A stretch of 64,000 nt of DNA from Escherichia coli (GCF_003334305.1 NZ_QOWS01000022.1); one strand, 5' to 3'; positions 5,679 to 6,804 are shown, counted from the stretch's first letter. The notes: generated by a model not told the origin, from the letters alone. Translations and numbers: made by a program.

Positions 5679-6040
5679 ATTTTTCCCTAAATAGTCAGTA
5701 TGTTGAAACTTTTTATTGTGAGATTTGTTGCAAAAACCATCTGACCATAACGCCAGCTGCCGGGGAAAGGAAGGATTATCTGCGGTTTTTGTGATGAAAA
5801 GCAGGATGATTATATTTAACCCAGTAAATACGTTCCTGTCTTTTTTTGTATAAAAAATGTTTATTACTCGATGTAAGGATACATTAATTTTACGTTTATT
5901 ATGATGAATCCTCGGCAAATGAGCGAAATTTGATAGAACATTTATCTGCTGTACGATTTAATGAACTTAATGATACAGCATTACAAAAACAATCGAAGTT
6001 TATAAAGATGATTCCTGATTGACCAGAACCCTATCCTACA

Positions 6041-6466
6041 ATGGTGACTAATTTTATTACTCCCGATGGAGATGATGATATGAATATATCATATGTGAAT
6101 AGCAACAAAACGACATCTTTACCTGTTGAGCTAGATGCACTAAATAATAAAGATACCTCTTATGCCAAAGATTTTTCTTATGCTAAAGATTTCTTTTTAT
6201 ACATAGAAACACAGTTAAAAATTGCAAAAGATTTTTGTAGACCTGGAGAAGAAGTATCAAGTTCTATTGCAAGTAAAGTTTTTCACGCATTTATTGATTT
6301 AGTTAACAAAATCAGGGGTAAGAAAGACTTTATGTATATTTGCACGCTTTGCTGTTTTGCCGAGGAGGTTAAAGGTGATTATTCTCATTACAGGACCTTT
6401 TTATTTGATATTGGTAATCAATATAAGGTTAAACTTACACAAAGCGGAAAAAATAGCTCTCTTTAA
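6041..6466 (+). CDS. hypothetical protein in AT-rich aphA-tyrB spacer
   Basis: 141 aa ORF in strongly AT-rich DNA; contains tandem SYAKDF-SYAKDF repeat; no recognisable domain; may be non-coding. Confidence 0.3.
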   Translation: MVTNFITPDGDDDMNISYVNSNKTTSLPVELDALNNKDTSYAKDFSYAKDFFLYIETQLKIAKDFCRPGEEVSSSIASKVFHAFIDLVNKIRGKKDFMYICTLCCFAEEVKGDYSHYRTFLFDIGNQYKVKLTQSGKNSSL

Positions 6467-6804
6467 CATTAGAATTTAACGATACTATAATTGAATCTCA
6501 GAAAGTCACAGGTAATAAGGCAAAGCATATTCTTGAGGATATAGAAATATTCTATCGTAACAAACCCGATACTTATTATTAAATTTAATAATGGTTAGAT
6601 GTGCAGAAATTATTACTCCACACGAAAAAATAGGGAAAGGAATTCCAGATAATTGGGATAAACTTAACAATAAAAGAACTGACAACGTTTTATTATCTCT
6701 CACGTAGAACAACGGCATCAAAAAAATCATCTACAAAGAAATAGTGAAAGCGACGACAGTTTAATTTCACTGCAGGCTGGGTAACTCCAGCCTGCTTTCC
6801 TGCA

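Follow-up and report, generated by a model that had tools for sequence, protein, structure and literature searches.

A probable truncated allele of the orphan gene yjbS in an AT-rich islet between aphA and tyrB of Escherichia coli

Why is the spacer between aphA and tyrB so long and so AT-rich in Escherichia coli, and is the open reading frame (ORF) that it contains a working gene, a relic of one, or an accident of base composition? We analysed this locus in a stretch of E. coli DNA 64,000 nucleotides long (GCF_003334305.1, NZ_QOWS01000022.1; hereafter the window), in which aphA (acid phosphatase AphA) occupies positions 4965..5678 and tyrB (aromatic amino acid transaminase) positions 6805..7998, both on the minus strand, according to the ORF list and the RefSeq annotation, that of an identical strain in the case of aphA. 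The spacer between them (5679..6804) measures 1,126 bp and has a GC content of about 30%. In windows of 200 bp, GC ranges from 0.27 to 0.37 across positions ~5700–6800 as against about 0.50 in the flanks, and the segment of 956 bp starting at 5801 is the GC minimum of the whole window (0.305 versus 0.504 overall). An earlier note, made from the sequence of the window, had singled out this long AT-rich spacer, and the feature is real, being the lowest in GC of the 64 kb. What went unrecognised there is that this stretch corresponds to a locus of E. coli that has already been annotated, yjbS. The ORF has tyrB and aphA as its neighbours and runs opposite to both, which is the arrangement of the yjbS family. 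The spacer is 100% identical in E. coli strains AMSHJX01 and H15, and is found at 90–100% identity in 4,379 of 5,426 complete E. coli genomes. The feature is therefore real but ordinary, an already known locus.

Our analysis makes it likely that the window carries a truncated allele of yjbS, an orphan gene situated in an AT-rich islet specific to E. coli, and that the locus is shaped by decay and presumably by silencing through H-NS. According to this explanation, an islet of ~0.95 kb lies between the upstream region of aphA and the putative terminator hairpin of tyrB and bears a single orphan gene that is read divergently from aphA.

The aphA-proximal upstream region on the promoter side of the gene (5679..5817) is conserved in all Escherichia, irrespective of what occupies the slot. 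Genomes that carry the KguS/KguR island at this site (described below) align to the query up to window position 5817 only, and in Escherichia lineages with an empty site the ~140 bp upstream of aphA are well conserved in the alignment. Alignment with the empty sites places the yjbS islet, the part of lowest GC, at ~5818..6773, where either edge may be off by a few tens of bp. The right edge of the islet is formed by a GC-rich hairpin read from the sequence (6772..6795, minus strand), a putative tyrB terminator, which sits just downstream of the tyrB stop codon and has an equivalent placed alike in the empty-site lineages. A simple terminator scan missed this hairpin because it lacks a T-run. 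The sequence held in common with the empty sites is limited to the tyrB stop with its hairpin and to the ~140 bp upstream of aphA.

The islet (~5818–6773) has no counterpart in four non-coli Escherichia lineages (Escherichia sp. MOD1-EC7003, E. whittamii, Escherichia sp. E1V33 and strain SCPM-O-B-8794), where the tyrB–aphA spacer is 328–354 bp long. The spacer is mostly 160–320 bp in Citrobacter, Salmonella, Klebsiella, Enterobacter and others. A survey of the aphA neighbourhoods of 80 other enterobacterial species, the four Escherichia lineages included, gave a YjbS-like tblastn match in none of the 80 species representatives. A comparison across species, which the earlier note had proposed as a check, finds the islet restricted to E. 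coli and Shigella, with Salmonella and the four other Escherichia lineages devoid of it. The locus combines absence from the same site in close relatives with a GC content far below the genome average. The view in the earlier note that this is no housekeeping gene agrees well with such a lineage-restricted, AT-rich islet of insertion type, absent from 80 other enterobacterial species.

The same slot is occupied differently in about 20% of E. coli, which carry the KguS/KguR island in place of the islet. The slot in these genomes contains genes for a sensor kinase and a sigma-54 regulator together with 2-oxoglutarate dehydrogenase-like and transporter genes (an example is E. coli DP033, positions 1–8184 of its locus), and no yjbS remnant was found in them. 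This island for alpha-ketoglutarate utilisation (c5032–c5041 in UPEC CFT073) was described by Cai et al. 2013 (PMC3694859) as "inserted between tyrB and aphA". It shares with the yjbS islet the slot and the boundary on the aphA side, ~140 bp upstream of aphA, but it is unrelated in sequence and function, is about 14 kb long with ten genes, and has a known metabolic role. The two are mutually exclusive. Kgu also occupies this slot in E. albertii, three Citrobacter species and Klebsiella indica, where the KguS/KguR homologs beside aphA show 72–95% amino acid identity, and the Kgu island is therefore not UPEC-specific in origin. The aphA–tyrB slot thus appears as a clean multi-state integration site that may be empty, hold the orphan islet or hold the Kgu metabolic island. 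Two further observations concern the surroundings of the slot. Long, GC-rich tyrB–aphA spacers of 695–1,049 bp (GC 0.55–0.63, compared with the usual ~200 bp) are present in Enterobacter sp. RIT418, Huaxiibacter chinensis, Lelliottia sp. WAP21 and E. hormaechei subsp. hoffmannii, where some other insert seems to occupy the slot. Directly beyond tyrB, some strains have an AAA-family ATPase gene and pnuC (DP033, 9641–11001) where the window has alr, which indicates that the tyrB–alr junction is variable too.

In some natural isolates the islet has been interrupted by IS1 or deleted by it. In strain SL124, IS1B stands in place of the entire islet together with the 5′ part of aphA (2681–4114 of its locus), and aphA is annotated as partial; in strain ZH142, IS1 lies inside the islet. 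IS1 insertion at yjbS nucleotides 193/204 was recovered twice in an evolution experiment on adaptation to macrophages (PMC4999529).

The ORF of 141 codons that the earlier note placed at 6041..6466 on the plus strand is present in the ORF list exactly as claimed. However, translation probably starts at ATG 6080, giving 128 amino acids, rather than at ATG 6041. This start is preferred because a Shine-Dalgarno-like GGAG motif (6068..6071), invariant in four aligned alleles, is located 8 nt upstream of it, because it is the start of yjbS in RefSeq and in K-12, and because the changes upstream of it are exclusively non-synonymous (4 of 4 substitutions in the 13 codons before 6080, from three alleles). 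The in-frame upstream extension (6041..6079), in which ATG 6041 has no Shine-Dalgarno sequence before it, is probably untranslated. The resulting reading frame (6080..6466, plus strand) is a truncated allele of the yjbS family, identical to the RefSeq entry WP_001339137.1, a "hypothetical protein" of 128 aa, and begins at the same codon as the 67-aa "protein YjbS" that RefSeq reports in K-12-type strains.

Full-length forms of the gene encode 161–173 amino acids and end in RNKPDTYY; the window ORF, with 128 amino acids, falls short of this. Its frame is correct for 124 codons, is then shifted at codon ~124, and reaches a stop after residue 128, so that the product lacks the last ~43 residues of the 167-aa full-length form. 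The frameshift site (6448..6456, plus strand) is a hot spot of recurrent lesions and reads AAAAAATAG in the window as compared with AAAAAAAGAG or AAAAAATGAG in intact alleles, a net change of −1 nt. Intact alleles have GCGG-AAAAAAA-GAG or GCGG-AAAAAA-TGAG where the window has GCGG-AAAAAA-TAG, and this net loss of one nucleotide at the A-run would end translation after 128 residues. Immediately downstream, an out-of-frame C-terminal remnant is still open over 41 codons and a stop (6457..6582, LSLTLEFND...RNKPDTYY*), and its frame-2 translation matches the C-terminus of intact alleles. Strain JL05, which differs at the A-run, has an ORF that continues to 167 aa and ends in RNKPDTYY. The window ORF may thus be regarded as an allele of the loss-of-function type, in which the truncated product would have lost its function, while partial activity of the 128-aa product could persist.

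The A-run carries four independent lesions, in the window, K-12, O157 and AR436. In O157:H7 a 10-bp deletion has taken out the run itself, AR436 combines A6 with a further 1-bp deletion, and K-12 has a 1-bp deletion upstream together with a change from A7 to A6 downstream. In queries specific to each lesion, 1,422 genomes carry the K-12 deletion, 309 that of O157 and 157 the lesion of the window. As regards a possible homopolymer switch, the A7/A6 run bears four independent lesions, each of them fixed in a large lineage, and seven bases are few for switching at high frequency. The yjbS gene is dispensable and has been lost repeatedly.

How common, then, is the intact gene? Forms of 160–174 aa are numerous in protein searches, and every long form whose locus was examined lies between aphA and tyrB. 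Intact ORFs of 161–173 aa were found in 15 sampled genomes verified by sequence and in 5 further alleles reached via the protein. The intact fraction was taken from an evenly spaced sample of the ranked match list (48 islet-bearing rows) and not from a full census: 15 rows are intact by sequence, 7 show an annotation pattern marked "(x2)", which proved to be intact in 5 of 5 checked cases, 22 are truncated and 4 are unclassified. Roughly half of the islet-bearing genomes therefore keep the full gene. The reading of the earlier note that the region is a decaying fragment of horizontal origin consequently suits this strain, whose allele is truncated by a frameshift, but goes too far for the locus in general.

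Substitutions among the intact alleles are of the coding type. Thirteen intact alleles segregate 24 synonymous and 48 non-synonymous changes (pN/pS 0.49, Fisher p = 0.003), and their variable sites are distributed over codon positions 1, 2 and 3 as 15, 24 and 32. For aphA and tyrB of the same strains, pN/pS is 0.06 and 0.08, respectively. Given the base composition of the islet, 167 codons would be free of stops with a probability of about 4e-7. Taken together, the pN/pS ratio, the bias in codon position and the stop-free frame identify a genuine, weakly constrained coding sequence and not a random one. With roughly one allele in two intact and a pN/pS significantly lower than 1, the gene probably has some function in strains with an intact allele.

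It might be argued that the ORF of the window is itself a working gene, in which the 128-aa product or the common N-terminal helical part is functional and variant C-termini are tolerated. The truncated alleles are indeed frequent and stable in large lineages, as the numbers of genomes given above indicate, the N-terminal 57 residues are highly conserved, and GGAG precedes the start codon. However, the shortened products end at very different lengths (67, 119, 126 and 128 aa) owing to separate frameshifts, as decay would have it; the segment that is lost is the most confidently predicted one of the protein (residues 111–150, pLDDT 84–89); and ~20% of E. coli do without the locus, which IS1 has deleted in SL124. 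We therefore regard a working 128-aa gene as improbable, and the few transposon insertions reported in K-12 yjbS, which also speak for it, are considered below.

The comparison with K-12 suggests how the locus came to be annotated as it is. K-12 yjbS (b4621, "uncharacterized protein YjbS", 67 aa) agrees with the window allele in locus, strand, start codon and Shine-Dalgarno sequence, and residues 1–46 of its product equal those of the window protein except for I26T and a 6-residue insertion in the window. It differs in having one repeat unit and a 1-bp deletion after codon 46 (K-12 numbering), which is followed by an out-of-frame tail of 21 residues. Both the K-12 and the window alleles are truncations of the 161–173-aa form, and, as judged from the sequences, the 67-aa YjbS of K-12 appears to be what two frameshifts have left of a longer gene. 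RefSeq (PGAP) marks many intact alleles of 167/173 aa as "frameshifted" or "incomplete" and sometimes adds a separate 83-aa "hypothetical protein" at them, apparently through taking the truncated K-12 YjbS, or some other short form, as its reference protein. The new points are modest, namely the remnant nature of K-12 YjbS, the inverted RefSeq flags, the recurrent lesions in the A-run and the slot with its three states. They are of value mainly for annotation and for the reading of genome-wide screens, and have no bearing on a long-standing open question. If functional, the intact protein would represent an accessory trait specific to E. coli.

Within the ORF, the earlier note had described a tandem duplication of 18 bp encoding SYAKDF-SYAKDF. 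The duplication is real, with coordinates that lie one base to the right of those given there: the copies are located at 6158–6175 (TCTTATGCCAAAGATTTT) and 6176–6193 (TCTTATGCTAAAGATTTC). Tandem Repeats Finder (TRF) reports an 18-bp repeat at 6158..6192 (1.9 copies, 94% matches) and at 6149..6190 (2.3 copies). Read in frame, the array extends over 6149..6193 on the plus strand, with unit 1 at 6149–6166 (KDTSYA), unit 2 at 6167–6184 (KDFSYA) and a partial unit at 6185–6193 (KDF), and the units have diverged to 14 of 18 identical nucleotides in register. Variation in copy number among strains, which the earlier note had suggested looking for, is present: one, two or three units are seen in E. 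coli, and the repeat is more than a chance resemblance because its copy number varies in this way. Among the sampled rows ~40% have one unit, 55–60% two and ~2% three. The two-unit junction of the window/JL05 type occurs in 1,110 genomes, and strain E300010 has three units. Alleles with a single unit keep a unit of the unit-1 type in K-12 and of the unit-2 type in O157; since each keeps a different unit, they look like the products of old and rare deletions or duplications more than of a fast contingency locus.

Alleles with 1, 2 and 3 units are all in frame, which is not what a phase-variable locus with a repeat-driven switch of frame or promoter would show. The array corresponds to residues 24–38, mostly within the first 32 residues, for which the AlphaFold model has a pLDDT below 50. 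It is thus a tolerated in-frame minisatellite, (K-D-x-S-Y-A)n, in a tail that is probably disordered, and would not act as a frameshifting switch; changes in its size would probably occur by replication slippage or unequal recombination and leave the frame unaffected. The array resembles bacterial coding minisatellites (VNTRs) in its unit length, a multiple of three, in its copy variation and in its location in a disordered segment, but differs from them in being very short and in having diverged units.

No homolog of the full-length protein was found outside Escherichia and Shigella. A phmmer search of 1.84 billion cluster representatives returned only relatives of at least 75% identity or fragments, and a search of 5.8 billion sequences returned Escherichia only, while members from Shigella flexneri and S. 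sonnei appear in the cluster lists. Among family collections, Pfam-A gave nothing at E ≤ 10, NCBIfam a best match of 13.5 bits against a cut-off of 250, PHROGs a best match with E = 0.26 and PADLOC nothing, while the best match among PDB sequences had E = 0.14. The full-length protein is predicted to be soluble, with 161–173 aa and a mass of about 19 kDa. Its predicted model consists of a disordered N-terminal stretch of ~32 residues, three helices, a five-stranded sheet and a C-terminal helix, and is only moderately confident (pLDDT 68, pTM 0.66, from 6 near-identical sequences). In this model the truncation seen in the window would remove the best-predicted part of the fold. No whole-domain structural match was found among the known folds of the PDB and the AlphaFold DB. 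The best non-self Foldseek matches are uncharacterised proteins of E. coli, Shigella and Salmonella of 143–531 aa with 10–18% identity and E-values of 1e-4 to 1e-3 (UniProt A0AAW5ZGU2, A0A5W0JRV5, A0AAN3TTQ2, A0A8S7QRV4, Q8XC25 and A0A2X2HGS0). These might be distant relatives, or the matches might be driven by composition.

Where did the islet come from? Its composition and distribution suggest horizontal acquisition. A phage search gave no match to the islet, plasmid matches look like mislabelled chromosomes or chromosomal fragments, so that no donor was found among the phages and plasmids searched, and a repeat search found no direct or terminal repeats flanking the edges of the islet. The lack of homologs in both of the large protein searches, the absence of a phage or plasmid donor and of scars of mobility, and the relaxed constraint on a partly disordered product would also accord with a gene born de novo in E. 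coli from an AT-rich non-coding spacer. However, the islet cannot be aligned with the ~190 bp that sister Escherichia have at this site, which leaves ~0.8 kb of new sequence to be explained, and a predicted compact alpha+beta domain together with a 167-codon frame at 30% GC is more typical of an imported gene. Birth in situ is thus very unlikely, and the islet would have entered E. coli by horizontal transfer.

Data on K-12 bear on the expression of the locus. The tyrB/yjbS region of K-12 (318 bp, entry 4266514_318, Table 1) is one of 78 promoter islands of Panyukov and Ozoline 2013 (PMC3661553), where it is marked as H-NS-bound and associated with predicted foreign DNA; short abortive transcripts have been reported for promoter islands (PMC3661553). 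From MG1655 coordinates and allele alignment we mapped its counterpart to ~6303..6621, a placement that uses an offset of 1,977 bp between genome versions from our own arithmetic and is good to a few bp only. This counterpart covers the 3′ two-thirds of the ancestral coding sequence, and the K-12 promoter island is therefore intergenic merely under the truncated K-12 annotation, being largely inside that coding sequence. The islet of the window resembles H-NS-bound promoter islands in its very low GC and its lineage restriction; occupancy by H-NS itself is reported for the K-12 counterpart. Promoter-like sites number 6 in the islet, compared with 5.2 ± 2.1 in dinucleotide-preserving shuffles, which retain the AT-richness and were scored with a scanner different from the PlatProm of the promoter-island authors. 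The Lang consensus motif for H-NS occurs at 2.1 per kb in the islet versus 1.4, which is no clear enrichment. By analogy with K-12, the islet is presumably H-NS-bound and nearly silent in the window strain as well, and H-NS would be what holds it so.

The same data raise the possibility that the region is mainly non-coding, a platform for H-NS nucleation or a promoter island with an influence on aphA or tyrB, or else a gene for a small RNA, with the ORF being incidental. The K-12 counterpart belongs to the promoter islands, for which H-NS occupancy and short abortive transcripts have been reported, the islet adjoins the upstream region of aphA, and an adaptive-evolution study reported a mutation in the spacer, 74 bp upstream of aphA (PMC11677807). 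However, Rfam gave no match at E ≤ 1, a simple scan found no terminator-like site on the plus strand, the substitutions are patterned by codon, and roughly one strain in two has kept the frame of 167 codons open. These findings also tell against the suggestion of the earlier note that this is a locus for a small regulatory RNA. In addition, the relatives with spacers of 160–350 bp and the Kgu strains retain just ~140 bp beside aphA, and aphA and tyrB can therefore do without the islet. Altogether there is little chance that the function of the region is mainly non-coding.

Transposon screens of K-12 can be read in the same light. A low density of Tn5 insertions in yjbS was found by TraDIS (PMC5821084), and in another TraDIS study yjbS was among the genes with few insertions (PMC9687012). 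Such a low density might be expected of a working gene, but it is expected of H-NS-bound AT-rich DNA too, which is under-targeted by transposons, as discussed in PMC6785131 citing Kimura et al. 2016; the Tn5 data fit protection from transposition by H-NS. The gene was listed as "essential by TraDIS only" (PMC5821084) and was taken as essential in genome-recoding work (PMC13287592). True essentiality is implausible, since many natural strains lack the locus or have suffered its deletion, and the TraDIS call is probably an artefact of insertion bias.

A bolder interpretation than that of a decaying, silenced islet would be that the intact protein is functional and specific to E. coli, has an unassigned alpha+beta fold and is maintained through weak purifying selection in about half of the islet-bearing strains, with its losses and the mutual exclusion of islet and Kgu island being dependent on the niche. 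We consider this combination possible but doubtful. If it were true, the repeated inactivation in K-12, O157:H7 and this strain would reflect niche-dependent selection and not neutral decay, and the weak structural likenesses would point to an unrecognised family of enterobacterial proteins. The annotation would moreover be inverted, K-12 yjbS being the pseudogene and the "frameshifted" RefSeq entries the real gene.

The islet is not the only AT-rich stretch in the window. Two other stretches of ~1 kb, at ~22900–24550 and ~14100–15050, have a GC content of 0.31–0.33, nearly as low as that of the yjbS islet. By arithmetic on the K-12 map these should be the malM/yjbI and zur/yjbL regions, both of which are also among the listed promoter islands (PMC3661553).
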